Positions 6,354 to 60,456 of a stretch of DNA of 64,000 nucleotides are shown here, piece by piece. This stretch comes from Candidatus Uhrbacteria bacterium (GTDB lineage: Bacteria; Patescibacteriota; Patescibacteriia; UBA9934). The notes under the pieces were generated by a model. The model searched no databases and was not told the origin of the DNA. It saw nothing but the letters and a program-made list of their open reading frames with translations. Both the position numbers and the translations under genes were made by a program. The first letter of the stretch is position 1; each line of letters opens with the position of its first letter. The DNA lies in assembly GCA_963822405.1 (NCBI GenBank), contig CAWGHH010000001.1:23296-87295 (forward strand), read 5' to 3'.

Positions 6354-7430
6354 CTACTTAGTCAAAATAAAGTCCTGCTTTTCTACCGGAATAACTTGTC
6401 CGTCTAAGGCTTTGCTAGCCAGCCCAGCAAAAATCTGCCTAATGGCCTCTTTTTCATTTTTAAGCTTTGCCGCCCTCTGCTCGTCGGACATCTTGCTCCA
6501 ATCCGCATCGTTATATGTCACCGGATTGTCTAAAGACTTTTTTAAATCCTTAATCACGCTTATTTTATTCTCTTTCAGAGCTCGTAAAATAGTCCTCATC
6601 CAGAGCTCATGGTCTTCCATGCCTCTTATTGAAACCTCTTCACCGGTTGGAGATTCTACTTTTTGGCCGTTACAATTTGGATTAAACCCGCCCAAATCTA
6701 CAACATCCATGAGTTTATAAATGGACAAGGTATTTCTTGATAACGGAACCAGCTCAGTCAAATTCGCAGATTCCGGGTTTCGAATGATCTTTGCTAAGGC
6801 CTCGAACCGATTCGCGGGAATATCGTTTCTAGGTTGGCTCACGTCTGCCTCGTCCTCCCTAACTGTAAAAATATATCGGGCATCTTGATTGATTAGTTCA
6901 CTAATCTGTTCGAGCTCGTTAGGTGTTAGCTCGACATCAAATGACAAATTTAATATTCTCACCCGATCACGATTAATTTTCTTCTGCAGACAAAGCTCAT
7001 TAATAAGCGCCGCTCCGGAATTCAAACCGGCTGTCAGCGAATAATTTTCAATCTGCAAAGGCACGAGGTCGAGCTCGGAAGTATTAGCACTGATTGCCTT
7101 AAGCGATTTTTCGGTCACGCCCGCGTCTTCTTTCTGATTGATACTCATGAGTACGCCTTGCAAGCCAGGAATCTTCTCCTTAAGTACCTTCATTTTTTCA
7201 GCGAACAACTTGATAGCATCCTCATCTTTGTTCCAACATCTAACAATCGCCACAACTATAGCCGAGGCTTCAGATTTCGCCTGTTCGAACTTAGTCTCAA
7301 GAACATTTGTTTGTTTCAAACCTAACTCAGACAAATGAATTCTCGGCCTAATACCACGCTCACCAGATTGCTCGATAGAACTAATCATTTCATCAACACC
7401 ACCCTTTCGCCTGGATTCGAATTCAACCAT
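6354..7430 (-). CDS. Hypothetical protein, last gene of the surface-protein operon
   Basis: 358-aa ORF with no recognisable motifs; same strand and tightly spaced after 7442..9799. Confidence 0.45.
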   Translation of the reverse strand: MVEFESRRKGGVDEMISSIEQSGERGIRPRIHLSELGLKQTNVLETKFEQAKSEASAIVVAIVRCWNKDEDAIKLFAEKMKVLKEKIPGLQGVLMSINQKEDAGVTEKSLKAISANTSELDLVPLQIENYSLTAGLNSGAALINELCLQKKINRDRVRILNLSFDVELTPNELEQISELINQDARYIFTVREDEADVSQPRNDIPANRFEALAKIIRNPESANLTELVPLSRNTLSIYKLMDVVDLGGFNPNCNGQKVESPTGEEVSIRGMEDHELWMRTILRALKENKISVIKDLKKSLDNPVTYNDADWSKMSDEQRAAKLKNEKEAIRQIFAGLASKALDGQVIPVEKQDFILTK

Positions 7431-7441
7431 ATGTACGCGGG

Positions 7442-9799
7442 CTAGGGAGTTATCGATGTTGGAGCCGGTATCGTTGTGTCAGCCGGCGGAACGGTAGGTT
7501 CGATTGGCTCGGGAATTACCGGCTTAACCGTTGTCTCGTTCTTTTGCAGCTTATCAAGCCTTGTCTTTACAGTTTCATTGTCTGGATTAGTTGCGACTAG
7601 TTCTTTTAGCAAGTTAATCGCTTTATCTTTCTTACTCTGTGCTTCGTAAGCCACCGAGAGGTACCACTTCACGTTGTCATTCTTTGGATCAAGCGCCAGA
7701 GCACGTTCAAGCTCAGTTGCCGCCAGGTCATTCTTGCCTTGGCGCAAGTAGAGAAGCGACAGCTGAATGCTGACACCGACATCTTTTGGACTAATAGCGC
7801 GAGTAACTTCCATGCTCTGCACAGCACCAGCGAGATCGCCTTTTCGCTCAGAAACGAATGACGAATAATACCGAGCCGAAGCATAATCACCCTTTAAGGC
7901 AATTGCTTTTGTAAGCGCGTCACCGGCTTTAGTTAGTGCTTCCGCCTGCGCGTCTTTAGCCTTCTTGGCGTCTGCCTCAACCTTTCCGTCAATTAACGGA
8001 TTCAGCAAATCAGAACGGACGATGTACGCTCGAGCTACATCAACTAAATATTTTGGGTTATTTGGCGCGAGTGAAGCAGCCTTTTCTGATGCACCTATAG
8101 CCTTACTATTTGCATCTGCCATCACAGAGGAAAATTCTCTATAAACGGTGGCCAACATTTGCCAGTTAGCAATGCTATTTGGCCCAATATTTACAGCAGC
8201 AATTGCCGAATTAACTGTCGCAGATGAATATCCTTGGAGAGCCGTAGGATCAGCCTTTGGATCAGCTGCCAAGGTGGACGTCTGGATCAACAAGGCGTTT
8301 GATAGGTTTCGATAGTATGAATCGTTGTGGGGGTTGAGCGTAGCAGCACTGTTCAAAAGCTTGATGACATCGGCTGCTGGTGCGCCTTCTTTATCTCGAG
8401 CCACAGCTTTGGCAAACGCCATTTCGGCGCCGTACCGAGTGATCGACAAGAACAGTGAAATCATGACGCCGACTGTCCCGAGCAAAGCAACAAAACTCGA
8501 CAATAAAGCTAGCCGAGGAGAATGTGCATGAGAAACTTCCTTACTTTGCGGTAAAGCAATAGCCGCTATCCAAGCTGTAAACAAGACCAAGATAAATAAT
8601 GTTGTCACAGTAAAGGAGAACATGAAAAAGGCAATAGCAATCGTCACCCAACCAATAACCGGAGGCAAAATTCTATCCCAATCAGGTTTAGTCGAAACAA
8701 CCGCTCGGAAGACGAATAGTATAAGCGCCAACGGAAATAATAGCGCGGCAATAATTCCTAGAATGCCGTAAGTAGCCAGCATAGTGAAGAACTCACTCAT
8801 GGCAGAACTAAAGCGCGTATCCCAGAACAAACTAGAATTCAGTTCCGCAGGCGAATACTGCGTGTAATCTATTCCGAATGTCCCCGGCCCTGAACCAATT
8901 AGTGGGTGTGCGGCCAAGGTTTGAGAAACCACGGTCATTGAAGACTTCAGGTTCAAGCTAACCTCCGGCGGGAATTTTCCATGCAACGGCGAAGGGATAA
9001 ATAGAAAAACAATCGCGAGCGCCAAAAATAGTCCAGGAATTGTTAAGACCGCCGTCTTTTGTAGCAATTCCGGTCGAGCAAACACGAAGGTAAACAGGAA
9101 AAGCGTTGTAGCGATAACCATCACCCACAACAACACTGAATCAAAGGCTATAAGCGCGAGCGCGGCCGTGAAAGCCGTGACTCCAAAGCTGATAGCGGTA
9201 ATTATTTGTTGTCGAGCTGAAGTTCGGCGACCGGTAGTGAGATACGTACTAACTCCGAACATTGTCATAGTCACCAAATAAACGGCAAAAGCAGTAGGCA
9301 CGCCGATAGTATTTTGGAATGGCGGAATAGATAGGCCAAAAAACGTCAAAAAAGACAAAAAGCCGGTTATCGCAGAACCTACCAGTAATGACGTGGTGAT
9401 GTCCCGTTGCAACTTCTCGTCTTCAAAGAAAACCGAGCCTAATAGCATCAAGAAGTACAACAGAACTCCCAAAAGTAAACTCGAGTGCTCCTGTCCACCC
9501 TCGCCCATGAAGCTAGTGGAAGGAGCCAGCGAGAAAGCACTAGATAGTGCCGCAATAGCTAAGAATACAATAGGTAAAAGCAAAACCGGATGTGTTTTTA
9601 CGTGGAGCGACTTGGTCAATGCCATGCCCAAAAATGATGTAGCCGCAATTCCCGTCCCCAAAATCACCAGAATGAACGATTTATTAAAGTCGAACACGTC
9701 CGTAGTCCACGGGAACATGACAAGCGGTACTAAAATTGCCGCTAGGCACCAAAGCACCCGAGAAATCTTCAGTAACATGAGGCCAATTTTGTGGGACAT
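7442..9799 (-). CDS. Polytopic membrane protein of the O-antigen ligase/polymerase type fused to C-terminal TPR repeats
   Basis: The N-terminal roughly 440 aa contain at least 10 predicted TM helices. The C-terminal roughly 300 aa are TPR-like (for example LSLLYLRQGKNDLAATELERALALDPKNDNVKWYLSVAYEA). The protein ends with a Pro/Thr-rich tail ...TTIPAPTSITP. Its start overlaps the stop of the upstream gene. Confidence 0.55.
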   Translation of the reverse strand: MSHKIGLMLLKISRVLWCLAAILVPLVMFPWTTDVFDFNKSFILVILGTGIAATSFLGMALTKSLHVKTHPVLLLPIVFLAIAALSSAFSLAPSTSFMGEGGQEHSSLLLGVLLYFLMLLGSVFFEDEKLQRDITTSLLVGSAITGFLSFLTFFGLSIPPFQNTIGVPTAFAVYLVTMTMFGVSTYLTTGRRTSARQQIITAISFGVTAFTAALALIAFDSVLLWVMVIATTLFLFTFVFARPELLQKTAVLTIPGLFLALAIVFLFIPSPLHGKFPPEVSLNLKSSMTVVSQTLAAHPLIGSGPGTFGIDYTQYSPAELNSSLFWDTRFSSAMSEFFTMLATYGILGIIAALLFPLALILFVFRAVVSTKPDWDRILPPVIGWVTIAIAFFMFSFTVTTLFILVLFTAWIAAIALPQSKEVSHAHSPRLALLSSFVALLGTVGVMISLFLSITRYGAEMAFAKAVARDKEGAPAADVIKLLNSAATLNPHNDSYYRNLSNALLIQTSTLAADPKADPTALQGYSSATVNSAIAAVNIGPNSIANWQMLATVYREFSSVMADANSKAIGASEKAASLAPNNPKYLVDVARAYIVRSDLLNPLIDGKVEADAKKAKDAQAEALTKAGDALTKAIALKGDYASARYYSSFVSERKGDLAGAVQSMEVTRAISPKDVGVSIQLSLLYLRQGKNDLAATELERALALDPKNDNVKWYLSVAYEAQSKKDKAINLLKELVATNPDNETVKTRLDKLQKNETTVKPVIPEPIEPTVPPADTTIPAPTSITP

Positions 9800-9802
9800 A
9801 TT

Positions 9803-12800
9803 TTATGGAGTGATTGTCGGATCAATAGGAGTCGGATCCACAGGGGAATCGACCGGCGCAACGGGGTCAGCTGGTACAGGATCGATCGTCGCGGGGTCAA
9901 CCGGGGCATCAATCGGTACCGTCAGATCAACTATTGGCGGATCAACGGGCATCGGGTCAACCGGAGCGGGGTCAACTACGCCAGCAACTACTGGTTCTGG
10001 TACAGGAACCGGAGTTGGTTCAGGTGCCGGTGTCACAAGTTGCGGCTCGTGGTCTTTCTCGTAGGCGATCACAAGCCAGTCGACCAAAATGCCGGTCGAT
10101 GCACCCGTGTCATGGATGATGAATCCCCCATTTGAACGATCGGTCACGTAAATCTGACCAGTTGCCCCAGCCGGCGTGACAAGAACTCTGTAAGAAGCAG
10201 TATTTGAAATGATCTGATTAAAGTGCACGTCTACATCAGAGAAGGTAACGGTAGCGATACCATTTTGCAATGTACTTGTCCCCGAGAGCTCAACCGTTCG
10301 CTCGGTGGTCGCTGCTGGATACGTGCTTACCAAGTCACCAGCAAATGATTTAACTTGCTTGATCACTGCGCCCTGTGTTGTGAAGTCACCGTTCTCGGCA
10401 ATTTTCCAGGCTCCACCAATCCCTTCCATCGAACCAACTGACAAAATGTTTCCACCATTCATGTTAAGCGCGCCAGAAAGGTCCAGTCCGTTCGACGAAG
10501 TAATTCCGGATACAGTGTTGCTAACATCCGGCGCCGCGTTCGTTCCACTGCCCGAATAATATGATGCACGAATGAATGCGACAACCTGACCAGCTCCGCT
10601 CGACCATGGCTCCATTGCGTAACCAAGAATCGGCCCAGCCTTAGTCGCTTTCATCGCCACACCCGGAGTCGACGAGGTGGTCAACGGATCGCCAATCGCG
10701 ACTGCGCCATTTTCGTCAGAAACATTCGTTGGCACTCGACCAGACAACGCGATTGGATAGCTTCCCGCCTTGTACTCACCGGCAAGGAAACCTGGACGCG
10801 TCGAAACGACACCAACGAGCTTCTCGTCGTACTTAGTTGTCCCCGACTTCTTTACACCTTGTGCGTGATCTGCAAATACAACTACTTCACCAGCCGCAAG
10901 AGTTTCATCCGATGGGAACATTTCAGCAAAATCATATGAACCAACATTCCAACCAGCGGCGTTTGTTTTCATGTAACCACCACCAACTGACGAATCGTAG
11001 AAAATGTATGCGTTTGTTTGGGTAAGTCCGCGATCTGATGGATACAAATTACCAGACACTAGAATATCACCGCTGTTTGTAATAGAAGCTATTTCGCCAC
11101 CAAGGTTATTCTCAAAGGCTAAACGATATTTGCTAAGCGAGTTGACCTTGGTTCGCAATCCCATGTTTACGTCGATCGAGGTTGCACCATCCCAACCGCT
11201 ACCAGCCAGCAATAAGGCGTGCGAACTCTGAGTCTGAGTCGATGCAGTGGCTCGGGCAAGAGAAGACAATTGAAGATCGCCACTGATTGCCAATGCCGAT
11301 CCGTCTGCAGCTAACATGTTTCCGCCGTACCAAGTGTTGTCGATAAATACCGTAATCGTTGTCATGCCAACGCCATTAAAGCTCGTTAGCGCGCGACCAA
11401 CTACGCGACCAGGAGCCGTTGCCTTCATGGCGTAACCGGGAGTTGAGGAAGCCGTTAGATAGTCGCCCGCAATAATAGGACCGTTCTCACTTGTCACATG
11501 AAGTGGAACTCGACCATCAAGTGCAATAGGCAAAGGGTGCGCGCCCTGGTCTCGAACATTCGTACCAATTGTTTCGTTAGGCGAGGTAGAAACAATGCCG
11601 AAAAGTAAATCAGCGGAAGTGGCACGTGTTAATACTGGCAGTGATTTTGTCACGGTTCCAGACAATATCTCACCGGTAAAAGCGTCACTCTCCTGCGCTT
11701 GATACGTAAACATTGATGACGTGAGCGCAACGATGTCTCCGTTCGTCGGAGTTCCGTCTGTCTCATACCATTCGGCGTAGTCAGCCGGTGCGCCAGAACA
11801 AACAACAAGTGCTCGGAACACCGCGGTAGTATCCGAGTTTGCACCAGAGTGACAGACACCGTTAGTGGTGGCCGTGCCGCCAAAGTTCATTGTAAAATCA
11901 CCAGCAGTTGTCACCTGCCAAGCGGTTCCGCCGATGATTGAGGCAGTTGTACCGGCCGTACTGTTTCCGATAGTAATGACGTCGGTAGTTGAAGCGTTCG
12001 TTGCGATGTTGATCGTGTCGCCACCATTGGATACAACTCCTCCAATATTTGTCGTCTTAGCACCACCACCATCGTTTAATCCTAGAACTGCCGTACCGGT
12101 AAGATCCGTGTTTGCGCCCCTAATCCATGCCGAACTTGATGCATGAAAACTACCAATAGTAATCGAGTCTGCGCTAGTCGCGTCCGTAGCAATCTGTATA
12201 GAATTCGCTCGATCTACATCTACCCCACCTATTTTAATGGTCGAGGAATCAGCCGCGGCATTCAAGAAATTAAAAGTAGCGGAGGTTGACGTAAAGTCTC
12301 CTCCATTCATGGCGATATCACCGGCGTTAGTGATTGACCAGTCATTACCACCAGTCAGAGTAAGGAGTGTAGATGCGTGTGAATTTCCGATAGCAATAGT
12401 GTCCGCAGTTGTGCCTTCTGTTGCTAAGTTTATTGTAGTTGCGGAGTCGGCAATAGAACCAACGGTAATAGTAGAGGAAGAAGTAGTCTCACCCATATAT
12501 ACTGTTCCTCCCTGTATACGAACGTTGTTGCCTCCGTAAAGATCCAGCGTAGATGAGGCATGCATGCTTCCGATGGTAACGTTGTCTGCCGAAGTAGCAT
12601 CTGTCGCTATTCGAACTTGGTTTGCACGATCGCTATCCACACCACCAATATCAATATTAGACGAGTTAGTCGCCAAATCAAGGAAATTAAAGGTGGCGGA
12701 TGTTGAAGTAATGTCTCCGCCGTTTAGCGCCAAATCATCAGCCGATGTAATTAATCCGGCACCGGAAACGCTCCAAGCAGTTCCGCCGGTCAGTGAAAGC

Positions 12801-14827
12801 GTCGTTGCAGCATTCGTATTCCCTACGCTTATGGTGTCCTGAAAAGCGGCTCCGGTGCCAATATTGATCGACGTCGCTATCCCCAAACCATCATTAATGC
12901 TTATCAACCCCGATTTTAAATTCATCACAGATGATGCATGCGCGCTGCCAATAGAAACCGTGTCCGCAGAGGTGGCATCAGTAGCGATGCTGATCGTGTT
13001 AGCTAAATCCGTTCCCACACCACCGATATCGATCGTTGGTGTATCACCGGTATTATCCAAAAAATTGAATCCGACTGTTGCAGAGGAAGTAATTGCTGAG
13101 AAAAATGGAGAGTTCAAGGCCAGACCGTTTGCCAACGTCAACAGACCGCTTGCGTCTAGCGACCAACTAGGTCCACCGATCAGTGCTAAAGTTGTAGCAA
13201 CGTTCGAGTTTCCAATGCTAATCGTATCTCCAGCCGTCGCATCTAGACCGATGTTGATCGTATCTGCATCTGAATAATTGGCAATGTCGATCGTGTCACA
13301 AGCAGCCGAGTTACAAAGAGACATGCTAGTCGCATTAGTATTTCCGATGGCGAGCACCCCAGCCGAAGCTTTGTCTAAGCTTGCAGACGTAAGATTCAAA
13401 AATGTACCCAAGCCGTTATTCGCTATGCTCCAATTAGCACTAGTCAAATCAATAGAGTCAGAAGCCTCACCGATAGAAATAGTGTTAGCATTAAAACTCG
13501 TTCCGATGCTTAGCGAAGCACAGGCAGGTGAGTTACAAAGCGTTAGAGAAGTAGCATTTACGCCACCGATTGTTAATGCTCCAGCGGCATTTGTATCCAG
13601 CCCTTGGTTAACCGCGATATTAATCGTTCCGGCAGATGAAACATCGAAATTTGTAAAATCAATGGCGCCAGTAGTTCCAATAATATTATTATCGCCGACC
13701 GATAAAGCGTTCGTGTAGTCAGTGTCAGTCGCAACTATAGCGGTCGTCGATGCGGCAGATGCGGAAAGGGTTAGCACGCCAGTCGATGAGATATTCCAAT
13801 CATCACCACCGGTGAGCGAAACGGTAGTTCCAGCATTTCCATTTCCCATGATAATCGTGTCCGCGCTGGTTCCGTTCGTGGCGATGTTGAGGTTATTCGC
13901 AATATCAACAATCGGACCAGATCCGCCAATGTTGATCGTGGCCGAATCTCCAGTGGCGTTCAATAGATTGAATGTCCCAGCCGTAGAAGTAAAATCTCCT
14001 CCGTTTAACGCAAGGTCGGCACTGCTAGTAATGTTGCTTGCGGTAGAAATAACATTCACTGAAGTTAAGATCAGGTCGCCCGATGTGTTGGTTGATAATG
14101 TTGCGCCAGGAATAGCGGCACCGGAATTATAAATACGGATAAGACCGTTAAGTGTACTGTCGGTTCCAAGGTTTAGCTCAGCAAGAGACTCATCAAAGAA
14201 AAACTTACCAGCGGCTGGCGTCACTCCACCAATAACAAAATCATCAGTCGCCGAAGTCAAATACGTATATGTACCACCGTCAGTAAACAACGAAGTAAAG
14301 GCGCTCGAGTCTAAACCGTCGAGGGTGTCAGCGTTTAAAGCGTAAGGCGCAGCGACAATCTGTTTTCGAGGTGAAAGTATTTCACCATTAACGGTAACTT
14401 CGAGATAGACGCCAGCATTGTTGCCAAAAACTGTATCAGCGATGGCGGCATAAGGAACGCCGGCGGCGGTATCACCAAGATTTTCTGAAAAAAGGCCATC
14501 AGTTAGCGTGACTGTTCGAGCCGCTGGGGCCACACAAGTAGCAGAAGCGTTTGACCACAAACATGTACCACCGGAAAGCGCATCATAAAACTCGAACTTC
14601 ATGCTCGCTGTTGTCGCCGCCACCGGCACGCCGTTAGTATTAAGAATTCTGCCTTGATAACTTGTAATGTTTGGGGCGCTTGCGGCATGCGTAGAAACGC
14701 CGAAAAACGCGGAGAGGGCCGCGAAGCCGATCAAAACGGGCACGAGGAGAAGCCTCGCAATTACTTGCGGGAATCCGTGGTGTGCACGTTGATTCATGTA
14801 GTTACTAAACTGTGTCGAGCGCCACAT
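9803..14827 (-). CDS. Giant secreted cell-surface protein (1674 aa) with tandem Thr/Ser/Ala/Gly/Asn-rich repeats
   Basis: Signal peptide/TM LLLVPVLIGFAALSAFFGVSTHAASA. At least 5 tandem roughly 100-aa repeats (LTGG..WS..G.L......ALNGGDITSTSATFNFLD.....S.I.IGGV..DRAN...IATDATSAD..TIGS.HASS). Two C-terminal roughly 60-aa repeats (GRVP..V.ENG....GD.LT.SSTPG.AMKAT). Pro/Asp/Val-rich C-terminal tail ending ...DPTPIDPTITP. No internal stops over 5 kb. Confidence 0.7.
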   Translation of the reverse strand: MWRSTQFSNYMNQRAHHGFPQVIARLLLVPVLIGFAALSAFFGVSTHAASAPNITSYQGRILNTNGVPVAATTASMKFEFYDALSGGTCLWSNASATCVAPAARTVTLTDGLFSENLGDTAAGVPYAAIADTVFGNNAGVYLEVTVNGEILSPRKQIVAAPYALNADTLDGLDSSAFTSLFTDGGTYTYLTSATDDFVIGGVTPAAGKFFFDESLAELNLGTDSTLNGLIRIYNSGAAIPGATLSTNTSGDLILTSVNVISTASNITSSADLALNGGDFTSTAGTFNLLNATGDSATINIGGSGPIVDIANNLNIATNGTSADTIIMGNGNAGTTVSLTGGDDWNISSTGVLTLSASAASTTAIVATDTDYTNALSVGDNNIIGTTGAIDFTNFDVSSAGTINIAVNQGLDTNAAGALTIGGVNATSLTLCNSPACASLSIGTSFNANTISIGEASDSIDLTSANWSIANNGLGTFLNLTSASLDKASAGVLAIGNTNATSMSLCNSAACDTIDIANYSDADTINIGLDATAGDTISIGNSNVATTLALIGGPSWSLDASGLLTLANGLALNSPFFSAITSSATVGFNFLDNTGDTPTIDIGGVGTDLANTISIATDATSADTVSIGSAHASSVMNLKSGLISINDGLGIATSINIGTGAAFQDTISVGNTNAATTLSLTGGTAWSVSGAGLITSADDLALNGGDITSTSATFNFLDLATNSSNIDIGGVDSDRANQVRIATDATSADNVTIGSMHASSTLDLYGGNNVRIQGGTVYMGETTSSSTITVGSIADSATTINLATEGTTADTIAIGNSHASTLLTLTGGNDWSITNAGDIAMNGGDFTSTSATFNFLNAAADSSTIKIGGVDVDRANSIQIATDATSADSITIGSFHASSSAWIRGANTDLTGTAVLGLNDGGGAKTTNIGGVVSNGGDTINIATNASTTDVITIGNSTAGTTASIIGGTAWQVTTAGDFTMNFGGTATTNGVCHSGANSDTTAVFRALVVCSGAPADYAEWYETDGTPTNGDIVALTSSMFTYQAQESDAFTGEILSGTVTKSLPVLTRATSADLLFGIVSTSPNETIGTNVRDQGAHPLPIALDGRVPLHVTSENGPIIAGDYLTASSTPGYAMKATAPGRVVGRALTSFNGVGMTTITVFIDNTWYGGNMLAADGSALAISGDLQLSSLARATASTQTQSSHALLLAGSGWDGATSIDVNMGLRTKVNSLSKYRLAFENNLGGEIASITNSGDILVSGNLYPSDRGLTQTNAYIFYDSSVGGGYMKTNAAGWNVGSYDFAEMFPSDETLAAGEVVVFADHAQGVKKSGTTKYDEKLVGVVSTRPGFLAGEYKAGSYPIALSGRVPTNVSDENGAVAIGDPLTTSSTPGVAMKATKAGPILGYAMEPWSSGAGQVVAFIRASYYSGSGTNAAPDVSNTVSGITSSNGLDLSGALNMNGGNILSVGSMEGIGGAWKIAENGDFTTQGAVIKQVKSFAGDLVSTYPAATTERTVELSGTSTLQNGIATVTFSDVDVHFNQIISNTASYRVLVTPAGATGQIYVTDRSNGGFIIHDTGASTGILVDWLVIAYEKDHEPQLVTPAPEPTPVPVPEPVVAGVVDPAPVDPMPVDPPIVDLTVPIDAPVDPATIDPVPADPVAPVDSPVDPTPIDPTITP

Positions 14828-17255
14828 TCACCGTTAATGGTGCGGGCTCTTTCTTATCCCGGTAATCAATAGGGCGAACAATTTTTTCCGCAAACCCCGT
14901 TTTAGAGAAGCTTACGTAATACTCGTTCGGACCTAAAAGGAAAGAATAACGGCCACGGTTATCCGTGAGCGTAGACTCGACAAGTTTATTATACCGCGGT
15001 TCGAAGAGCCGCACGACAACATTCCCCAGGGGAGCTTTTCCAACAGTCGCATCAACGATTCCCCAGCCCTTCGGCTTCTTCGGAGTGGCCAATCGAATAG
15101 AAATTAACAAGGTAACAATTTGCACACCAAGACCGATTCCAGAAAACACCCCCGGCAATGTAACGAACACGAAAAATGAGAGCAAAACACCAGTTGGCGC
15201 AGCAACCTTTTGAAGAGTGCGCAAAAATCGTTTCATTTTTAGTCTGTGTTCACCTTGATGCGCCGGCGCTTCAGACGGATCCATTGGAATATTCGCCGCA
15301 ATAGTCGCGTCTTTTTCGCTGACGGTTATGAGCTGCGAAGTATAAACATCAAGAAATACTCCGTCATCCTTAATGCCGGCCGAATAAACACTTGGAAAAA
15401 TGAATCCCCCTTTAGCGACCTTAAGTTTGTAGACGCCCGGCTCTGGCACGAATAGAAAATACTTTCCTTCAGCATTAGAAACCGCTGACTTAATCAGTCG
15501 GTTATCCGAGACTCGATATAGCCTAACTACCGCGAGCTCAACAGGGATCTTCGTCACTGCGTTATACACTACACCGTAAGCCTTTCGTTTTCGACGATTA
15601 AAAAGCAATAATGGCGAGGTGATTAGGTATTGGAGATACGCGCCAAGGTTAAAACTCGAGGCCAAGACTATAGTTGAGGAAGCCGCTACCGCAGCCGTTA
15701 CTGGCGCCGCCACAGTAGCCGTTGCCTGTGCTTCTGGCGACGAAAGAACCTCATTAATTGCGGCCACCGCCTGAGTAGCAGCCACACTTACCGCAGTCAC
15801 CGTCTTCGCAACTTGTGGGGGCAAGACAGCAAGAATAGGCGAAGGTTCAGGAGTCACAATCGGGACAACAACTTCGGCAGTTCGTCGAAGCTCGATCGAT
15901 CCTGACAAGACATGGTCCCGTGATGCAGTAGAAATTGTAGCGGTTTCATATCCATCACGTTCCGCGACTAACGTATAGCTTCCATCCGGTACATACCAAC
16001 CAAAAGTTCCATTAATCGTTGTGCGCTGTGGATTAGATTCGCCAAAAGAAGACGCATTCCATAACGTTTGTGCGCCGGAATATACAGTGACTATTACATT
16101 TTCTACTGGTCGTCGCACGCCATTTACTATTTCATAAACTAAACCGTAAGAACTTGGTTGTACCGCGACTGGAACAACTTTAGTCCCCCCACTTTTTCGA
16201 GTCACAACTACATTGAGCACGTCGCTTCCAGTCGGAGCCTGAATTAACCCCTGGTAAGTATCCGGGGATATTTGCGACAAAATATAATTGGCGTCGCCAA
16301 TCACTACCATCACCGCACTAACATCCGTCGGGTTCGTCACAGACACGCGCACAACCGGCGTAGTTCCGGGCAACACACTAATCTGACCACCGACGAGCGA
16401 TAGTGGGATACCTCCAGCTGTTACCGTAACTGAAACATCAATATCGGTTGGAAGTGCACTTCCACCAGATGGCGGAGTTGATGGCGTCGGTGCAGGCGAA
16501 GGACTCGGTGGAGTCGGGGTTGGAGTAGGTTCCGGTGTGGGGGTTGGGGTTGGCTCAGGAGTTGGCGTTGGTGGAGGTTCTGGAGGAACAACCGGAGGTT
16601 CAGGTGGCGGTTCTGGCGGTGGTGCCGGTGGCGGCCCAGAAGGTGGAGGCACTGGGATAACTTCCGTGATCACGGATCCCGACACCCCAGACGTCGAGGC
16701 ACTAATAATCGGTAAAGGAATCGAGCCCCTATTCAATGATGTCCCGGCTAAATCAATATAATACGTACCTGCAGTAGATGGATTAGTAATCTTATTCGCC
16801 CCCGTTCCAGATGATGACGCGTTTGTTCCGATCTCAATTCCCACCACATGACCGGCAATGATCGAGCCTCCATCACCAGCACAAACAGTGATCGTGAACA
16901 CGTTCACCACTCGATCCACAGACATCTGTTCGACTCCCGTACAATCAGCCGCCGTGGTTCGGTCAACGCCATTGTCAGTCACGTCAACATCATCTTCAAT
17001 AATAGAGGAAGCCGTGAATCCGCTTGGGAACGTTAATATAACCGTCTCTCCTTCATCCCATGCATCAGGACTAGCTAACGTGAATAAAAACGAGTGATTC
17101 GACGGCTGACTAATGACTATCGTACTTGGCTGATCGGAAAGATTTGTGACCACGTCAGTGACCGCCTGTACGTTCGAAATAGGAAAAACACCCATCAAAA
17201 AAAGGGTGATAATACAAAACATCGCGGCACGCTGCAAAAAAAATCTCACAGGCAA
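14805..17255 (-). CDS. Surface protein with a Pro/Thr-rich linker and carboxypeptidase-regulatory-like (CarboxypepD_reg/Cna-B-like) beta-sandwich domains
   Basis: Signal peptide; a roughly 70-aa PT/PE linker (PPPEPPPEPPVVPPEPPPTPTPEPTPTPTPEPTPTPTPPSPSP); three segments with CarboxypepD_reg-type motifs (YSGAQ...DGSYTLVAERDGYETA; AEGKYFLFVPEPGVYKLKVAKGGF; NRGRYSFLLGPNEYYVSFSKTGF); interspersed hydrophobic helices. It overlaps the start of the 1674-aa gene by 23 nt. Confidence 0.6.
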   Translation of the reverse strand: MPVRFFLQRAAMFCIITLFLMGVFPISNVQAVTDVVTNLSDQPSTIVISQPSNHSFLFTLASPDAWDEGETVILTFPSGFTASSIIEDDVDVTDNGVDRTTAADCTGVEQMSVDRVVNVFTITVCAGDGGSIIAGHVVGIEIGTNASSSGTGANKITNPSTAGTYYIDLAGTSLNRGSIPLPIISASTSGVSGSVITEVIPVPPPSGPPPAPPPEPPPEPPVVPPEPPPTPTPEPTPTPTPEPTPTPTPPSPSPAPTPSTPPSGGSALPTDIDVSVTVTAGGIPLSLVGGQISVLPGTTPVVRVSVTNPTDVSAVMVVIGDANYILSQISPDTYQGLIQAPTGSDVLNVVVTRKSGGTKVVPVAVQPSSYGLVYEIVNGVRRPVENVIVTVYSGAQTLWNASSFGESNPQRTTINGTFGWYVPDGSYTLVAERDGYETATISTASRDHVLSGSIELRRTAEVVVPIVTPEPSPILAVLPPQVAKTVTAVSVAATQAVAAINEVLSSPEAQATATVAAPVTAAVAASSTIVLASSFNLGAYLQYLITSPLLLFNRRKRKAYGVVYNAVTKIPVELAVVRLYRVSDNRLIKSAVSNAEGKYFLFVPEPGVYKLKVAKGGFIFPSVYSAGIKDDGVFLDVYTSQLITVSEKDATIAANIPMDPSEAPAHQGEHRLKMKRFLRTLQKVAAPTGVLLSFFVFVTLPGVFSGIGLGVQIVTLLISIRLATPKKPKGWGIVDATVGKAPLGNVVVRLFEPRYNKLVESTLTDNRGRYSFLLGPNEYYVSFSKTGFAEKIVRPIDYRDKKEPAPLTVNVALDTV
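16470..16670. repeat. Low-complexity GGT/GGA/GGC microsatellite-like tract encoding the PT/PE linker
   Basis: ggttggggttgg / ggtggcggttctggcggtggtgccggtggcgg reiterations, which are potential slipped-strand indel sites. Confidence 0.4.
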
Positions 17256-17258
17256 TCA

Positions 17259-18119
17259 TTAAGTGCGACGCCGCACTAAACTGATTATACCAAGAAGGAC
17301 GAGTGCCAATGCTAACACCGCACCGAAAATAACAATCGGCGGAATAAACGTAACAAATGTCTGGGCGAGTTTTGCATCACCGTCCCAGAGTTCAAACCTA
17401 TACGACCCAAGTAAAAACTTTGAAAATCCAGTTTTTGCCGGCCAATTTAGCGAAACCCCACGAATGGTTCCTGGTGGTAAATGTTTTGGCTCATTAGAAA
17501 GCTGACCCCGGCCAACTTCACGACCAAATGGCCCGATTATTCGGACTTCATTCGGTAAAATTATCGTCTCTTCGCCATCATTTTGAAATACTGCTGATAT
17601 CATCGTGCTTTTTCCAAAGGTAACTGCTGGAGTGGCGGCGAATGAGTCAATAATCATTGACCGCGTCATCCGACCAGGAACATGAATAAACAACATCGAA
17701 GCCACAGAGGCTTGAACATTACCAACAGACGTCGAGTTCCCCTTCTCAGTGACAAGAATTACCACTGTCGGAGATTGTGCATCGACCCCTGTCGGCAAGC
17801 TCACCGATATATCGATCGTCCGCGAAGAGTGCGGTTCGAGTATGAACGTGCTGGGCAATGCAGAAATTGCCGTTTTCAAGTCTCCAGCTAACGCAGTAAA
17901 GGAGATTTCTTCGGCCTGTTTTCCAAAAACTGCTTCAACAAAAGAAATATCGTAATTCCTCAGTAAATCAGTATCGTTTTTTACTAAAATCGTTGCTGTC
18001 GCCTTTTCGCCGGGCATCACCGTTAGATCTGAAGCACTGGGTTCAATAGTCGCCCCAAACGCAAACAGTGGCGTCGCAAAAGATGTGATCAAGGTCAACA
18101 AGACTGCAAATCGACGCAT
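17259..18119 (-). CDS. Small surface protein with an N-terminal signal peptide and a C-terminal TM anchor followed by basic residues (CscA/DUF916-DUF3324-like architecture)
   Basis: N-terminal signal peptide MRRFAVLLTLITSFATPLFAFGA; C-terminus IVIFGAVLALALVLLGIISLVRRRT. Confidence 0.5.
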   Translation of the reverse strand: MRRFAVLLTLITSFATPLFAFGATIEPSASDLTVMPGEKATATILVKNDTDLLRNYDISFVEAVFGKQAEEISFTALAGDLKTAISALPSTFILEPHSSRTIDISVSLPTGVDAQSPTVVILVTEKGNSTSVGNVQASVASMLFIHVPGRMTRSMIIDSFAATPAVTFGKSTMISAVFQNDGEETIILPNEVRIIGPFGREVGRGQLSNEPKHLPPGTIRGVSLNWPAKTGFSKFLLGSYRFELWDGDAKLAQTFVTFIPPIVIFGAVLALALVLLGIISLVRRRT

Positions 18120-19561: not shown

Positions 19562-19637
19562 TGGTGGACCAATGGGGATTCGAACCCCAGGCCTCGGCAA
19601 TGCGAATGCCGCGCTCTACCAACTGAGCTATTGGCCC
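19562..19637 (-). tRNA. tRNA-Ala (anticodon CGC)
   Basis: The reverse complement folds as GGGCCAA TA GCTCAGTTGGTAGAGC G CGGCA TTCGCAT TGCCG AGGCC TGGGG TTCGAAT CCCCA TTGGTCC A CCA. It has the G3:U70 Ala identity pair and an encoded CCA. Confidence 0.8.
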
Positions 19638-19638
19638 A

Positions 19639-19714
19639 TGGTGCCCTCACCTGGAATCGAACCAGGATCTAAGGCTTAGGAAGCCCCTGTTCTATCCAAT
19701 TGAACTATGAGGAC
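19639..19714 (-). tRNA. tRNA-Arg (anticodon CCU)
   Basis: The reverse complement folds as GTCCTCA TA GTTCAATTGGATAGAAC A GGGGC TTCCTAA GCCTT AGATC CTGGT TCGATTC CAGG TGAGGGC A CCA. It lies 1 nt from tRNA-Ala. Confidence 0.75.
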
Positions 19715-31512: not shown

Positions 31513-31587
31513 GCCCTAGTAGCTCAATGGATAGAGCAGGGCTCTTCTAAGGCCTTGATGTTGGTTCGATTCCAACCTGGGGCACCA
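31513..31587 (+). tRNA. tRNA-Arg (anticodon UCU)
   Basis: GCCCTAG TA GCTCAATGGATAGAGC A GGGCT CTTCTAA GGCCT TGATG TTGGT TCGATTC CAACC TGGGGC A CCA. Confidence 0.75.
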
Positions 31588-37181: not shown

Positions 37182-37211
37182 AAACCGACCTCACGGCCGG
37201 TCTGTGCAAAA

Positions 37212-57570: not shown

Positions 57571-60456
57571 ATGCATAAATATTCCCAGGGACAGTTAAAA
57601 AACGGCCTCAAGGGCATTGCGGACAGACTCAAGAGGGGCTGGCGAGGAATGAACAAAAAAACGCTCCTGAAAAACCTATTTTTAGCCTGTTTAGCCTTTG
57701 GCCTTTTTTGCATTATCCTCGTTGCTGGCACTTTCGCTTGGTATGCAAAGGATTTGCCCAATCCGAACGGCTTGGCGAGTCGCCAGGTGTCACAATCAAC
57801 TAAGATTTATGACCGTACTGGGACTCATTTGCTGTATCAGATTGCTTTGAACGGCAAGCGTACACTAGTCACCATCGACCAAATACCGGCGTACGTTAAG
57901 AACGCAACTATTACCGCCGAAGATAGAACTTTCTACGAGCACGGCGGATTTAGTCTTCGCGGATATGTACGTATTGCCTGGCATTATCTCTTGTCGTTTG
58001 GTCGAGTTAAAGAGGGTGCTTCGACCATCACTCAACAGCTAGTAAAGAACACCATTCTTTCAAACGAAGTGACAATTTCTAGAAAACTCAAAGAGCTCAT
58101 CTTGTCAGTCGCGCTTGAGCGAATGTATACCAAAGACCAGATTTTGCAGATGTATTTAAACGAGATCGCCTACGGTTCGGCAAACTACGGCATTGAGGCA
58201 GCTTCTGAACAATACTTTGGTAAGCAAGCCAAGGATCTGACCCTTGCTCAAAGCGCAACATTAGCGGCTATTCCACAGAGACCGAATGCATTTATTAACC
58301 ATCCAGACTTGCTTAAGGAGCGTCGCGATTGGATTTTGAATGGCATGGTGGACGAGGGGTACGCAACTCGGGAAGAAGCTGACGCCGCGCTCAAAGAAGA
58401 GACGCCGGTGAATACAGTTGTTAGCAATTTAACGGTTGCGCCTCACTTTGTTCTTTGGGTGAAGGGGTTGCTTGAAGATAAATACTCGCCTCGACTTGTG
58501 GAGACGGGTGGTTTGAAGATCATCACTACACTCGACTATGACAAGGAGGTGTTGGCCGAAAAAGCAGTGAAAGACGGAGTAGATACAAACGGCAAGCTAT
58601 ATAATTTCTCTGATGCCGGGTTGCTGTCGCTCGACCCAAAAACCGGCCAGATCCTGGCCATGGTTGGCTCGCCAGACTTTAATAACGTTGAAAATGACGG
58701 ACAGGTCAACGTAACTATTCAGCCTCTTCAGCCTGGTTCAAGCATTAAGCCGATCGTTTACGCCGCGGCGTTTGAGAAGGGCTACACGCCAAACACCTTG
58801 GTTTGGGATGACCTAACTACATTCCAAACACCCACCGGTCCATATAGCCCAAAAAACTACGACATACATAATCAGGAACGAGGCCTCATTTCACTTCGTA
58901 AAGCGCTGCAGGGTTCGTTAAACATCCCGGCGGTTAAGGTTTTGTATCTAGTCGGTATCGATAACGCTGTTCGATTTGCGAACAGACTTGGATATTCAAC
59001 CCTTGATCCCGCGAAAACTGGTTTGTCGATGGTACTTGGAGGTGCAGAGGTGAAGATGACGGAGCATGCCGCTGCCTACGCGGTCTTTGCGAACGGCGGA
59101 ACGTATCACGAACCAACGGGAATTCTGCGCGTCGAGAACCCAGACGGCTCTGTGCTTGAAGAGTGGAAGGATGAGGAGCACCAAGGAGAACGTGTTATCG
59201 ACTCGAACTTGGCTGCGACGATCAGTAATGTTTTATCTGACAATGACGCTCGATCTTATGTTTTCGGCTCTAATAATTGGCTGGTAGTTACTGGTCGATC
59301 AGTTGCCGCCAAAACCGGAACGACTAACGAATACAAAGACGCTTGGACAATGGGTTACACCCCTTCACTCGTAGCTGGCGTGTGGGTTGGAAATGCGGAC
59401 GGCACGAAGATGAAGCGAGCTGACGGTTCGCAGGTAGCGGCGCCAATCTGGAATGCGTACATGAAGGGCGCGTTAAATGGCACGCCCGTGGAGGCATTTC
59501 CGAAGGCGGATATTCCTCTTACCGGCAAAGACATACTGGATGGAAAAATGGCTGGTACGCCGGTGACGATAGATACGGCTAGCGGAAAACTCGCGACCGA
59601 GCTAACTCCAGATCGTTTCCGTAAAGAAGTTTTGTGCGGTTCGTATCACGACATTTTACAGTTCGTTGATAAGGATAATCCGACCGGACCGGTTCCAGAA
59701 CATCCAGAAAAAGATCCAAACTATAAAGTTTGGGAAGCTAATCTTCTCGACTACATCGCTAGACATAACGCCGATCTAAAAGATGGCGAGAAGCCACTTG
59801 AGAACTGCACCGCGCCAACAGAATATGACGATGTGCATACGCTAGCTAACAAGCCGGGAATGTCCATGATGTTCCCCTTGAATGATTATTCCGTAGGGCG
59901 ATCATTCGCTACGCAGATAGCGGTCGAACTACACAGATCGTTCTCCAGAATTGAATACACGGTGGACGGTGTCTATGTTGCGACTTCGTTTTCAACTAGC
60001 GGCGCAACGATAGTCCTGCCAGGCTGGGTTCAGCAGGGAAGTCATTCGTTCGCGGCTACAGTTTATGACGACGTAGATAACAACTCGACCGCGACGGCAA
60101 TTATCAATGTGCTCGACGCGGGTAGCCAAGGCTCTTTCACGATCACAAATCCATTCAACGGACAGACGATCGAAAAGTCCTTTCCAACATATGCCGTGGT
60201 CGTTGAGGTGCCTCACGCGAGCGATTACACTGCGCTCATAGTTACCGCGCGTAATATCTGGACTGGAGCAACTGTTCCAGTCGGGACCATCTCTTCGCCA
60301 CCTTCTATTGCGTCGATCGGCTGGACATTGCCAGCCCCTGGTGACTACACTCTGGAGGCAGAGGCAATTAGCGCGACAGGACAAACCCTCACCGCAACCC
60401 CAGTGAAAGTGCTTGTCCGTGATCCGCTACCGACGTCGATAGTACCTACCCCGTAA
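57571..60456 (+). CDS. mrcA: Class A penicillin-binding protein (PBP1A: glycosyltransferase plus transpeptidase) with an extra C-terminal beta-rich domain
   Basis: The likely start is MNKKTLLKNLF at about 57649, followed by a TM anchor. GT51 motifs (EDRTFYEHGG; GASTITQQLVKN; RKLKELIL). Transpeptidase motifs (SIKP; SLN; KTGTT). About 230 extra C-terminal residues. Confidence 0.85.
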   Translation: MHKYSQGQLKNGLKGIADRLKRGWRGMNKKTLLKNLFLACLAFGLFCIILVAGTFAWYAKDLPNPNGLASRQVSQSTKIYDRTGTHLLYQIALNGKRTLVTIDQIPAYVKNATITAEDRTFYEHGGFSLRGYVRIAWHYLLSFGRVKEGASTITQQLVKNTILSNEVTISRKLKELILSVALERMYTKDQILQMYLNEIAYGSANYGIEAASEQYFGKQAKDLTLAQSATLAAIPQRPNAFINHPDLLKERRDWILNGMVDEGYATREEADAALKEETPVNTVVSNLTVAPHFVLWVKGLLEDKYSPRLVETGGLKIITTLDYDKEVLAEKAVKDGVDTNGKLYNFSDAGLLSLDPKTGQILAMVGSPDFNNVENDGQVNVTIQPLQPGSSIKPIVYAAAFEKGYTPNTLVWDDLTTFQTPTGPYSPKNYDIHNQERGLISLRKALQGSLNIPAVKVLYLVGIDNAVRFANRLGYSTLDPAKTGLSMVLGGAEVKMTEHAAAYAVFANGGTYHEPTGILRVENPDGSVLEEWKDEEHQGERVIDSNLAATISNVLSDNDARSYVFGSNNWLVVTGRSVAAKTGTTNEYKDAWTMGYTPSLVAGVWVGNADGTKMKRADGSQVAAPIWNAYMKGALNGTPVEAFPKADIPLTGKDILDGKMAGTPVTIDTASGKLATELTPDRFRKEVLCGSYHDILQFVDKDNPTGPVPEHPEKDPNYKVWEANLLDYIARHNADLKDGEKPLENCTAPTEYDDVHTLANKPGMSMMFPLNDYSVGRSFATQIAVELHRSFSRIEYTVDGVYVATSFSTSGATIVLPGWVQQGSHSFAATVYDDVDNNSTATAIINVLDAGSQGSFTITNPFNGQTIEKSFPTYAVVVEVPHASDYTALIVTARNIWTGATVPVGTISSPPSIASIGWTLPAPGDYTLEAEAISATGQTLTATPVKVLVRDPLPTSIVPTP

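Follow-up and report, generated by a model that had tools for sequence, protein, structure and literature searches.

The window, i.e., the whole analyzed stretch of 64,000 nucleotides from an uncultured, ultra-small CPR bacterium, carries on its minus strand two adjacent genes for a giant secreted protein of 1674 amino acids (9803–14827) and a membrane/TPR protein of 785 amino acids (7442–9799). The stop codon of the first and the start codon of the second do not overlap, as had been predicted, but are set apart by a 3-nt gap (TAA-aat-ATG). Both genes form the last pair of a five-gene operon conserved in Uhrbacteria-like Patescibacteria (CPR), in which they follow genes for a Pam-pilin-like protein, a chaperone-like protein and an 816-aa membrane protein. 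A surface-appendage operon is the best explanation for this arrangement. The giant gene adjoins the membrane/TPR gene at all related loci of at least 31% identity that have upstream DNA; the gene for the Pam-pilin-like protein lies upstream in eight related loci and that for the 816-aa protein upstream of the giant in nine, and the position of the chaperone-like gene is kept as well. A 586-kb JGI contig at 43% identity shows the same operon order, and linkage to the fibre/pilus locus spans at least 17 species-level genomes. No genes for glycosyltransferases, flippases or initiating transferases were found in the 64-kb window or beside the operon in the 586-kb contig. The 20 other window proteins that were examined are housekeeping proteins.

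The first operon gene (18121–19041, minus strand) encodes a secreted protein of 306 amino acids with a PamT-like N-terminal half and a C-terminal half that resembles the Pam pilin C domain. Its NCBIfam matches, CPR_pilus_PamT (E 1.3e-9) and CPR_Pam_pilin_C (E 0.037), are both far under their cut-offs, with 37.8 bits for PamT against a model cut-off of 240. Among its 57 relatives (E≤0.01), 53 match PamT and 33 Pam_pilin_C; informative names were not found among its homologues. The next protein (286 amino acids; 17259–18119, minus strand) features a signal peptide and, after a beta-rich body, a C-terminal TM helix with RRRT behind it. It gave only weak Pfam matches (fn3_5 and WxLIP_PGBD), and no Pam chaperone model matched in the NCBIfam scan. 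Its architecture, together with the conserved gene order, is reminiscent of the membrane-anchored Pam chaperones PamC and PamD (preprint 10.64898/2026.03.03.709456), and by this analogy it might act as a chaperone. The 816-aa membrane protein (14805–17255, minus strand) combines CarboxypepD_reg (Ig-like) domains (Pfam PF13620, E 3e-17) with internal TM helices and a Pro/Thr-rich linker; a PTPEPTP stretch lies internally. It could possibly serve as a platform for assembly or anchoring.

The giant is a secreted modular tail-fibre-like protein, built from an N-terminal module, a repeat shaft, two Peptidase_G2-like domains and a disordered Pro-rich tail. It contains a single N-terminal hydrophobic segment (residues 26–44). 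As its homologues begin at residue 11, M11 at position 14797 is probably the true start, and with this start the apparent overlap with the upstream 816-aa gene is gone. The signal peptide and conserved N-terminal module (residues 11–200; 14228–14797, minus strand) are kept in about 105 of 119 homologues, and the module weakly matches Bdello_MAT_N, the N-terminal domain model for Bdellovibrio MAT fibres (27 bits at a cut-off of 60, E 2.7e-6). It is followed by a variable central shaft (residues ~210–985; 11873–14200, minus strand) that is rich in Thr, Ser, Gly, Ala, Asn and Asp and alignable in only ~20–45 of the 119 homologues. Self-BLAST of fragments revealed shaft repeats with a period of ~140 amino acids and a sub-period of ~70 instead of the ~100-aa period given in the original prediction, which had correctly described the DNA copies as diverged, since no tandem repeats are detectable in the giant at the DNA level. 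Two Peptidase_G2/intramolecular-chaperone-like domains follow, the first at residues ~1015–1170 (11318–11785, minus strand), placed by PF11962 matches of homologues, and the second at residues ~1290–1427 (10547–10960, minus strand), placed by self-BLAST and homologue mapping. In the self-BLAST, the two copies of this duplicated domain span residues 1016–1169 and 1299–1426. PF11962 is matched by five giant homologues with 25–37 bits (cut-off 25), over profile positions ~16–99 of 228 only, and this region of the homologues maps onto two copies in the giant. The giant itself has no Pfam match, PF11962 included, and none in PHROGs; its search against PDB sequences returned nothing but spurious ankyrin matches.

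The membrane domain of the 785-aa protein (8435–9799, minus strand) was modeled by AlphaFold (AF2) with a pLDDT of 95.6. In a Foldseek search against the PDB, WaaL (7tpg_B, E 4.1e-5, probability 1.0) was the sole match below 1e-3, with a TM-score of merely 0.40–0.45; a fold search that used the model of the whole protein was dominated by TPR matches and did not inform on the membrane domain. Topology prediction yielded 13 TM helices with the N-terminus inside (positive-inside count of 11 versus 0), a 12-TM core and, from TM9 to TM10, a large loop on the outside (residues 268–335). A region equivalent to Wzy_C (O-antigen ligase) at residues ~208–353 (8741–9178, minus strand), with the motifs HPLIGSGPGTF and FWDTRF, was located via the family member P0248, which reaches 31.5 bits against the PF04932 (Wzy_C) cut-off of 31.7 and places profile positions 2–149 on query residues 208–353. 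Five out of 60 remote family members match PF04932 (E down to 1.5e-10). WaaL of C. metallidurans aligns across the same motifs, and an hP-x-x-G-x-G-x-G-x-F motif with a following G-x-x-G helix is common to the membrane domain and the solved WaaL. Direct sequence searches were negative: Pfam (Wzy_C included) and NCBIfam left the membrane domain unmatched even at E≤10 (full protein and residues 1–500 in Pfam), PglL_A (PF15864) came up neither in the Pfam scans of the query nor among the top families for 60 of its relatives, PDB sequences searched by profile returned nothing, and neither the family profile against E. coli WaaL (hhalign) nor E. coli WaaL against the family (phmmer) gave a match. 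Judged from its modeled fold and from transitive homology, the protein belongs to the WaaL/Wzy_C superfamily as a divergent member. An O-antigen-ligase-like nature, as predicted originally, hence holds at this level, but is not readable from the sequence itself.

Owing to the 13th TM helix, the ~300-aa TPR domain and the Pro/Thr-rich tail of this protein come to lie outside the membrane; topology prediction places the TPR domain and the tails of both proteins extracytoplasmically. The TPR superhelix (residues ~456–752; 7544–8434, minus strand) was delineated from Pfam TPR families and AF2 helices, and its Foldseek matches include the TPRs of CTPR, OGT and SPINDLY, with PEX5 and Tom71 also among many others. 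The membrane/TPR family is large (13,102 representatives, i.e., ~13,000 at 50% identity), and its distant lineages have other upstream genes and often no adjoining giant. As the family extends far beyond the association with the giant, its members may be general envelope enzymes.

Enzymes of the WaaL/PglL type depend on an essential histidine, H338 in E. coli WaaL and H349 in N. meningitidis PglL, and on arginines R215/R288 and R224/R298, respectively (PMC3643930). No column of our 143-sequence alignment of the membrane/TPR family contains a conserved His. The essential His of WaaL and PglL falls on a variable column of the family, and the H-x-H-N of C. metallidurans WaaL aligns to R/x/x/S at query residues 332–335 in HMM alignments; with the low scores of all these alignments, the residue mapping from WaaL to the family is approximate. 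Candidate basic residues in the family are R329 (70% conserved) and the invariant K40. Strongly conserved polar and glycine motifs that face the outside comprise K40, E279, G302-x-G304, N321 and W326.

Both proteins of the pair end in ITP, as had been noted before, the giant with ...PVDSPVDPTPIDPTITP (last residues ...IDPTITP) and the membrane/TPR protein with ...PPADTTIPAPTSITP (last residues ...APTSITP). The low-complexity tail of the giant (residues ~1600–1674; 9806–10030, minus strand) consists of 32% Pro, 20% Val and 15% Asp in PVDP-like quasi-repeats, whereas that of the membrane/TPR protein (residues 753–785; 7445–7543, minus strand) is Pro/Thr-rich and disordered in the AF2 model, with a pLDDT below 50 for residues 769–785. 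Regarding the final 30 residues, they are the most proline-rich of all window ORFs of at least 80 amino acids (33% in the giant and 30% in the membrane/TPR protein). A [TS]P end is found in membrane/TPR orthologues down to ~40% identity. A further window protein, which is PBP1A-like, also has a Pro-rich end, ...SIVPTP. Support for the original prediction comes from this protein and from the recurrent Thr-Pro enrichment in both families, but not from the ITP tripeptide, which is not kept between orthologous pairs.

Thr-Pro ends occur in 18 of 120 giants and 21 of 146 membrane/TPR proteins, compared with internal dipeptide frequencies of 1.1–1.6% (uncorrected for phylogeny) and with a single case among ~210 other large ORFs of the same loci (0.5%). 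We considered a neutral origin of terminal Pro and Thr-Pro through nonsense mutations that hit Glu, Gln or Lys codons of PEP-type repeats; this model predicts 12% terminal Pro and 1–1.6% Thr-Pro, too low for the observed 32–42% and 14–15%. The terminal Thr-Pro excess is hence roughly ten-fold over both internal frequencies and the nonsense model. The 30 residues that precede Thr-Pro are unalignable (median identity 0.23–0.27). Many tails end in Glu or Lys, some lineages have Glu- or Lys-rich tails, and Thr is the last residue in only two of 120 giants. Tail compositions of giant and membrane/TPR protein co-vary across 20 genomes (permutation p 0.0007, uncorrected for phylogeny). Terminal tripeptides match in 0.43% of random pairs of giants and membrane/TPR proteins and in one of 20 same-genome pairs, namely the window's own. 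The exact ITP identity is therefore a coincidence over a real Thr-Pro bias; the family-level excess of terminal Thr-Pro and Pro, without phylogenetic correction, is far past chance.

Two origins considered in the original prediction could be discarded. A duplicated segment of which the tails would be relics is rejected, as their DNA lacks similarity (local alignment score of 12 versus a shuffle mean of 9.4±1.5 with a maximum of 15) and the terminal codons are not the same, ATC ACT CCA TAA versus ATA ACT CCC TAG. A common sorting or anchoring signal of the classical kinds (LPXTG, PEP-CTERM, GlyGly-CTERM or PGF-CTERM) does not apply because the tails, rich in Pro, Thr, Asp and Glu to the last residue, have neither a hydrophobic helix nor a basic end.

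The explanation that we put forward, still rather tentatively, is that the membrane/TPR protein acts on the fibre as a protein O-glycosyltransferase, in analogy to WsfB and to the TfpO/TfpM-pilin pairs. The enzyme's donor would be a glycan on an undecaprenyl-diphosphate carrier, and its acceptors would be Ser or Thr within extended, Pro-rich stretches of the fibre encoded beside it, with the acceptor peptide lying in the TPR groove; its own tail might be glycosylated too. The tails would be hypervariable, disordered acceptor or handle segments in which selection may favor Pro, often Thr-Pro, as the final residue or residues. Terminal Pro could cap the chain against exopeptidases, contribute to a recognition element, or do both. 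In line with the original prediction, enzymes that combine Wzy_C with a C-terminal TPR, such as WsfB and PglL, are predicted protein O-oligosaccharyltransferases (PMC2943079). Genes of such enzymes often adjoin their target gene (PMC3643930), and TfpO/TfpM modify the C-terminal Ser/Thr of a pilin encoded immediately upstream (PMC9829042). The adjacency of the two genes and the outside location of the tails fit the idea, raised before, that the giant may be a glycosylation substrate. Its Ser/Thr content of 23% does not, being typical of beta-solenoid fibres and not diagnostic for glycosylation. Against our reading stand a variable column in place of the WaaL/PglL His and no conserved His in 143 family members, the lack of Wzy_C or PglL_A matches in the query, the low TM-score to WaaL, the lack of glycan-assembly genes both in the window and beside the operon of the 586-kb contig, and a family of 13,102 representatives that is far wider than the association with giants. 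Moreover, glycosylation is never mentioned in the cryo-EM preprint on the Pam pilus (10.64898/2026.03.03.709456), and self-cleavage of the Peptidase_G2-like domains, if it takes place as it does in phage fibres, would leave the mature fibre without the giant's tail.

It is possible, if somewhat unlikely, that the membrane/TPR protein instead serves as ligase or polymerase for a non-protein envelope glycopolymer of a monoderm CPR cell, in a step resembling that of Wzy or WaaL by which a surface polysaccharide is attached or extended, with the TPR domain as export or assembly scaffold and the tails as unrelated, generic disordered ends of exported proteins. A WaaL fold and Wzy_C kinship do not separate ligases, polymerases and protein O-transferases; the His typical of ligases and O-transferases is missing, and the family is very large and often found away from a giant fibre. 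TPR motifs also mark polysaccharide export scaffolds, as far as the reference list of PMC2943079 indicates, and Pro/Thr-rich linkers or ends occur elsewhere in the genome, in the 816-aa protein (PTPEPTP) and the PBP1A-like protein. Yet the tight operon linkage, in at least 17 species-level genomes, is to a fibre/pilus locus and not to polysaccharide genes. In the sampled loci, the Thr-Pro end is moreover specific to the giant and membrane/TPR families, and the tails of the two co-vary.

We consider it unlikely that the shared tail has no specific function at all, being a low-complexity spacer that reflects a lineage-wide composition bias and ends in ITP by chance. Tripeptide identity in only one of 20 genome pairs, the missing DNA similarity between the tails, their hypervariability, with Glu- or Lys-rich versions in other lineages, and the disorder of the modeled tail would all fit. 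What such a spacer would not explain is the ten-fold Thr-Pro excess over internal frequencies and the neutral nonsense model, which is missing from other proteins of the same loci and survives in fully diverged tails.

Recognition of C-terminal peptides by TPR domains is well established, e.g., for PEX5 with PTS1 and Hop with EEVD. The membrane/TPR protein might accordingly be a mainly noncatalytic docking platform, whose TPR groove binds the giant's tail and its free Thr-Pro carboxyl end to tether the fibre or hand it over in assembly, with its own tail as an autoinhibitory pseudo-ligand. PEX5 and Tom71 TPRs are among the fold matches, as are many other TPRs, the catalytic His is absent, both tails are extracellular with co-varying compositions, and selection acts on the terminal residues, with drift in the remaining tail. 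We nevertheless regard this role as quite doubtful, because the conserved outside-facing K40, E279, G302-x-G304, N321 and W326 suit an active site rather than a mere anchor, and only 15% of the tails end in Thr-Pro, with many Glu and Lys ends instead. These numbers do not make a single C-terminal tag. It is very unlikely that the outside TPR of the WaaL-fold enzyme reads the free ...x-Thr-Pro end of a disordered Pro-rich tail as a recognition tag, as in PEX5/PTS1 or Hop/EEVD, and that both the enzyme and the surface-fibre proteins are thereby marked for glycosylation at the C-terminus or for covalent tethering to the envelope, in a CPR-specific sorting or anchoring route unrelated to sortases.

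CPR/Patescibacteria live on host cells, and their surface appendages are largely uncharacterized; the description of the Pam pilus dates only from 2026 (preprint 10.64898/2026.03.03.709456). In a different CPR class, the locus analyzed here connects a Pam-like operon with a giant fibre-like protein and an enzyme of WaaL fold with TPR. We arrive at the hypothesis that an O-oligosaccharyltransferase-like enzyme lacking the canonical His acts on Pro-rich tails with Thr-Pro ends. With ~13,000 representatives in the enzyme family, knowledge of the acceptor would annotate a sizeable share of CPR 'dark matter', and glycoengineering might, should the enzyme prove active, gain a new sequon and O-linking enzyme.

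Compared with known systems, the giant shares its modular layout of N-terminal module, variable shaft and C-terminal chaperone-like domains with phage fibres and tailspikes (Peptidase_G2, phi29 gp12 type) and with Bdellovibrio MAT fibres. Unlike phage fibres, however, it is encoded on the chromosome, has a signal peptide and no PHROG match, and carries two tandem G2-like domains, followed by a ~170-aa region and the Pro-rich tail. The Pam pilus of Ca. Mycosynbacter amalyticus is CPR-specific like the operon described here (preprint 10.64898/2026.03.03.709456). Both feature secreted pilin-like proteins (related to PamT and Pam pilin C) and a chaperone-like protein that has a TM helix at its C-terminus, and a protein that resembles tail fibres is consistently co-located with pam operons (same preprint). 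In contrast, the Pam match of our operon is far under the NCBIfam cut-off (38 versus 240 bits), Pam homologues were described mainly in Saccharimonadia and Microgenomatia rather than Uhrbacteria, and neither glycosylation nor a gene of the WaaL/TPR type comes up in the preprint.

Among enzymes, WaaL (PDB 7TPG), the sole significant PDB fold match, has the 12-TM core and the outside TM9–TM10 loop of the membrane domain; its acceptor, the lipid A-core, is missing in CPR bacteria. The membrane/TPR protein differs from WaaL and PglL by an extra TM helix and the ~300-aa outside TPR domain, and neither the essential His nor the PglL_A motif was found. TfpO (PilO) and TfpM are Wzy_C-family enzymes encoded immediately downstream of a filament gene, just as the enzyme gene here starts 3 nt past the fibre gene. 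They modify the last Ser/Thr of the pilin, whereas in the giant Thr is penultimate and Pro last. Furthermore, they comprise only 420–470 amino acids without TPR, compared with 785 amino acids, a 13th TM helix and a TPR domain, they act on type IV pilins of diderm Proteobacteria rather than on a 1674-aa fibre, and the membrane/TPR protein in addition carries a fibre-like tail itself. In WsfB of Paenibacillus alvei and WsaB with WsaA of Geobacillus stearothermophilus, S-layer protein O-oligosaccharyltransferases are found in monoderm bacteria, like the CPR bacterium here. The genes of WsfB and WsaB lie within S-layer glycan clusters, whereas the operon here has no nearby glycan genes, and their partner is an S-layer protein instead of a giant fibre in a Pam-like pilus operon. 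The membrane/TPR protein is under every Wzy_C threshold and has no conserved His, and its likeness to WsfB derives from the description of the architecture. WsfB, like the membrane/TPR protein, fuses a Wzy_C-type polytopic domain to a C-terminal TPR, while in WsaB the TPR is provided separately by the adjacent WsaA (PMC2943079), and the presumed acceptor is in each case, as here, an abundant surface protein.

The giant secreted tail-fibre-like protein (9803..14827, minus strand, 1674 aa) and the membrane/TPR protein encoded after it (7442..9799, minus strand, 785 aa) end in ...PVDSPVDPTPIDPTITP and ...PPADTTIPAPTSITP, respectively. Their last 30 residues are richer in proline than those of any other stop-to-stop ORF of at least 80 aa in the window. 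The core of the original prediction, paired Pro-rich tails both ending in ITP, is real, and its interpretation is supported in part. The genes had been thought to overlap; the junction instead reads ACT CCA TAA aat ATG, with a gap of 3 nt. Since homologues begin at residue 11 of the giant ORF, M11 (14797) is likely the true start. The best homologues were exclusively from Patescibacteria, the majority labelled Candidatus Uhrbacteria. The window is a piece of a 366-kb contig.

A duplicated segment as origin of the shared tail is excluded, because DNA similarity between the tails is no better than chance and their terminal codons differ. Orthologous pairs do not keep the exact tripeptide (ATP/TTL, VTP/LTP, TTP/TSP, VSP/QEP, VTP/VNP etc.), and the same terminal tripeptide occurs in 0.43% of random cross-family pairs; the ITP identity is a coincidence. 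Terminal Thr-Pro, on the other hand, was found in 18 of 120 giants and 21 of 146 membrane/TPR proteins, whereas the frequency of this dipeptide inside the tails is 1.1–1.6% (binomial p about 1e-13 to 1e-17, phylogeny ignored); the two families end in proline in 42% and 32% of cases, respectively. Under a neutral model in which Glu, Gln or Lys codons turn into stops, 1–1.6% Thr-Pro would be expected. Among 267 large ORFs of the window and 35 related loci, ten end in Thr-Pro, nine of them in these two families. The sole other one is a PBP1A-like enzyme of the window (57571..60456, plus strand, 961 aa), also with a Pro-rich end (...DPLPTSIVPTP); this bifunctional peptidoglycan synthase has extra Ig-like domains at its C-terminus. 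The 30 residues ahead of Thr-Pro are unalignable among members (median identity 0.23–0.27, 15 clusters per family). These analyses show that selection acts on the tail terminus, and the Thr-Pro bias in two co-encoded CPR surface-protein families is genuine and previously unremarked. C-terminal proline withstands many carboxypeptidases, and bacteria generally avoid it, as it slows translation termination; its enrichment in these tails is therefore notable. Across 20 genomes, the paired proteins vary together in tail composition (permutation p 0.0007), with shared ancestry and genome composition as confounders. Known sorting signals have a hydrophobic helix and a basic end, and every tail lacks these, which speaks against the proposed C-terminal sorting or anchoring signal.

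The single hydrophobic segment of the giant is an N-terminal signal peptide. Its repeats cover residues ~210–985 with a period of ~140 aa and a sub-period of ~70 aa, rather than the ~100 aa first proposed; their DNA copies have diverged as described, and no DNA tandem repeats were found in the gene. The sole detectable DNA repeat, a 40-nt pair (13297–13336 and 13519–13558, 222 nt apart, 73% identity), coincides with a repeated C-N-S-(P/A)-A-C cysteine pair at residues 431–436 and 505–510, possibly a disulfide-stapled turn inside the repeats. A separate domain is duplicated (residues 1016–1169 and 1299–1426). The giant had no match in Pfam, PHROG or PDB sequences; residues 42–125 weakly matched the NCBIfam N-terminal domain of Bdellovibrio mosaic adhesive trimer fibres. 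Among 119 homologues (1,083–2,834 aa), the N-terminal ~190 and C-terminal ~550 residues are conserved and the repeat shaft varies. Several homologues match Pfam PF11962, the intramolecular-chaperone domain Peptidase_G2 known from phage appendage proteins, and the matched region maps to the two duplicated domains. These domains, together with the variable shaft between conserved ends, point to the layout of a tail-fibre-like adhesin. Its Ser+Thr content of 23% is what beta-rich shafts of this kind commonly show and does not count as evidence of glycosylation.

Upstream of the giant, also on the minus strand, lie genes for an 816-aa Pro-rich membrane protein with CarboxypepD_reg domains (14805–17255), a 286-aa protein with signal peptide and C-terminal TM helix (17259–18119) and a 306-aa secreted protein (18121–19041). 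The 306-aa protein weakly matches NCBIfam CPR_pilus_PamT and CPR_Pam_pilin_C, as do 53 and 33 of its 57 relatives, all under curated cut-offs. The Pam pilus of CPR bacteria is the subject of a 2026 preprint (10.64898/2026.03.03.709456), with pilins joined by donor-strand exchange, chaperones carrying C-terminal TM helices and a protein termed 'tail fibre-like' that consistently lies together with the Pam operon. The order 306, 286, 816, giant, membrane/TPR recurs in a 586-kb contig (43% identity). Comparison of 35 loci from species-representative genomes placed a giant before the membrane/TPR gene wherever identity was at least 31% and upstream DNA was available, and established the operon linkage of the two genes; upstream of related pairs, the 306-aa gene was present in 8 loci and the 816-aa gene in 9. 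In more distant, Staskawiczbacteria-like lineages, other genes neighbour the membrane/TPR homologue; three Staskawiczbacteria-like loci have a different 626–1928-aa protein upstream, with amphipathic or basic ends (...IGKLIKF, ...IKSIMLGR) and not Pro-rich tails. In the 816-aa protein, two hydrophobic stretches alternate with the CarboxypepD_reg domains, and residues ~200–262 form a long internal Pro/Thr linker (PPPSGPPPAPPPEPPPEPPVVPPEPPPTPTPEPTPTPTPEPTPTPTPPSPSPAPTPSTPP).

A 358-aa protein (6354–7430, minus strand) encoded between the membrane/TPR gene and ychF has no match in Pfam or NCBIfam, and none of the 35 related loci has an equivalent; in those loci ychF mostly follows the membrane/TPR gene within a few kb, often directly. 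The gene for the 358-aa protein looks like a genome-specific insertion. Upstream of the operon and on its strand, tRNA-Ala(CGC) and tRNA-Arg(CCT) (19562–19714, minus) lie with a non-coding stretch of ~520 nt between them and the first operon gene; the region's best promoter-like site is TTGACC-17-TATACT (19842–19814). A 721-aa helicase (21493–23658, minus; ResIII, SWI2/SNF2, Helicase_C) unusually also carries INT_rpt ('Integrase repeat unit') at its C-terminus, in four copies. A phage-type tyrosine integrase (309 aa) beside a Bro-N domain protein (36336–38141, minus), a few kb from tRNA-His (32363–32437) and tRNA-Arg (31513–31587), may mark a small integrated element. The replication origin probably lies inside the window, because dnaA and dnaN (54072–56867, plus) are present and the minimum of cumulative GC skew falls at about 54–56 kb.

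In the membrane/TPR protein, Pfam and NCBIfam recognised the TPRs alone, as did fold searches with the full-length AlphaFold model (pLDDT 87). A membrane-domain profile retrieved 13,102 representatives from a library of 1.84 billion proteins, and most of the best 150 share the ~800-aa architecture. Pfam Wzy_C was matched by 5 of 60 distant family members (best E 1.5e-10), one of which covers the whole model in a region corresponding to residues 208–353. For a membrane-only model (143 sequences, pLDDT 95.6), the one solved structure under E 1e-3 was the WaaL O-antigen ligase 7TPG (E 4.1e-5, probability 1.0, TM-score 0.40–0.45), and solved WaaL aligns directly with family members across hP-W-x-G-x-G-x-G-x-F ... 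G-x-x-G. The modelled domain thus shows a WaaL fold. It has 13 TM helices, and because the N-terminus and predicted cytoplasmic loops hold 11 Lys+Arg versus none in the short outside loops, the model places the 68-residue TM9–TM10 loop, the TPR domain (residues 456–752) and the tail outside. Invariant or near-invariant residues facing outside are K40, E279, G302, G304, N321 and W326. The WaaL H-x-H-N motif, which holds the counterpart of E. coli H338 and PglL H349 (PMC3643930), falls on R/x/x/S by approximate mapping, and no conserved histidine was found in the family; the protein is a divergent superfamily member, not a canonical ligase.

By analogy, the membrane/TPR protein is tentatively read, as the likeliest of the explanations considered, as an O-glycosyltransferase acting on the giant fibre. 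It would transfer a lipid-linked glycan to Ser/Thr in the extended Pro-rich segments of the fibre while the TPR domain holds the acceptor, its own tail perhaps being a second acceptor. The original glycosylation reading gains from operon linkage, the WaaL fold and the outside tails; the missing histidine and the lack of glycan genes within the 64-kb window weigh against it. So does the Pam preprint's silence on glycosylation (10.64898/2026.03.03.709456), and the giant's tail might be lost through self-cleavage at the Peptidase_G2-like domains. The membrane/TPR family is, moreover, distributed far more widely than the giant; that it serves as ligase or polymerase for a non-protein glycopolymer fits this spread and the fold, if not the conserved pairing with the giant, and is a rather doubtful alternative. 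The last 17 residues of the membrane/TPR protein are disordered in the AlphaFold model, but functionless spacers are unlikely in view of the selected termini. Least probable is a non-catalytic TPR docking platform, compatible with the absent histidine and at odds with the conserved outside-facing residues.

Glycan transfer to the fibre is suggested because of three precedents. In WsfB and PglL, Wzy_C is joined to a C-terminal TPR; the TPR partner of WsaB is separate (PMC2943079). TfpO/TfpM genes lie directly downstream of the pilin gene, the pilin being glycosylated at a C-terminal Ser/Thr (PMC9829042), and PglL acts on the products of neighbouring genes or on flexible regions of low complexity close to prolines (PMC3643930). 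The pairing of a Wzy_C-family enzyme with an adjacent surface-protein target is known, and the locus described here would be a fresh variant of it.
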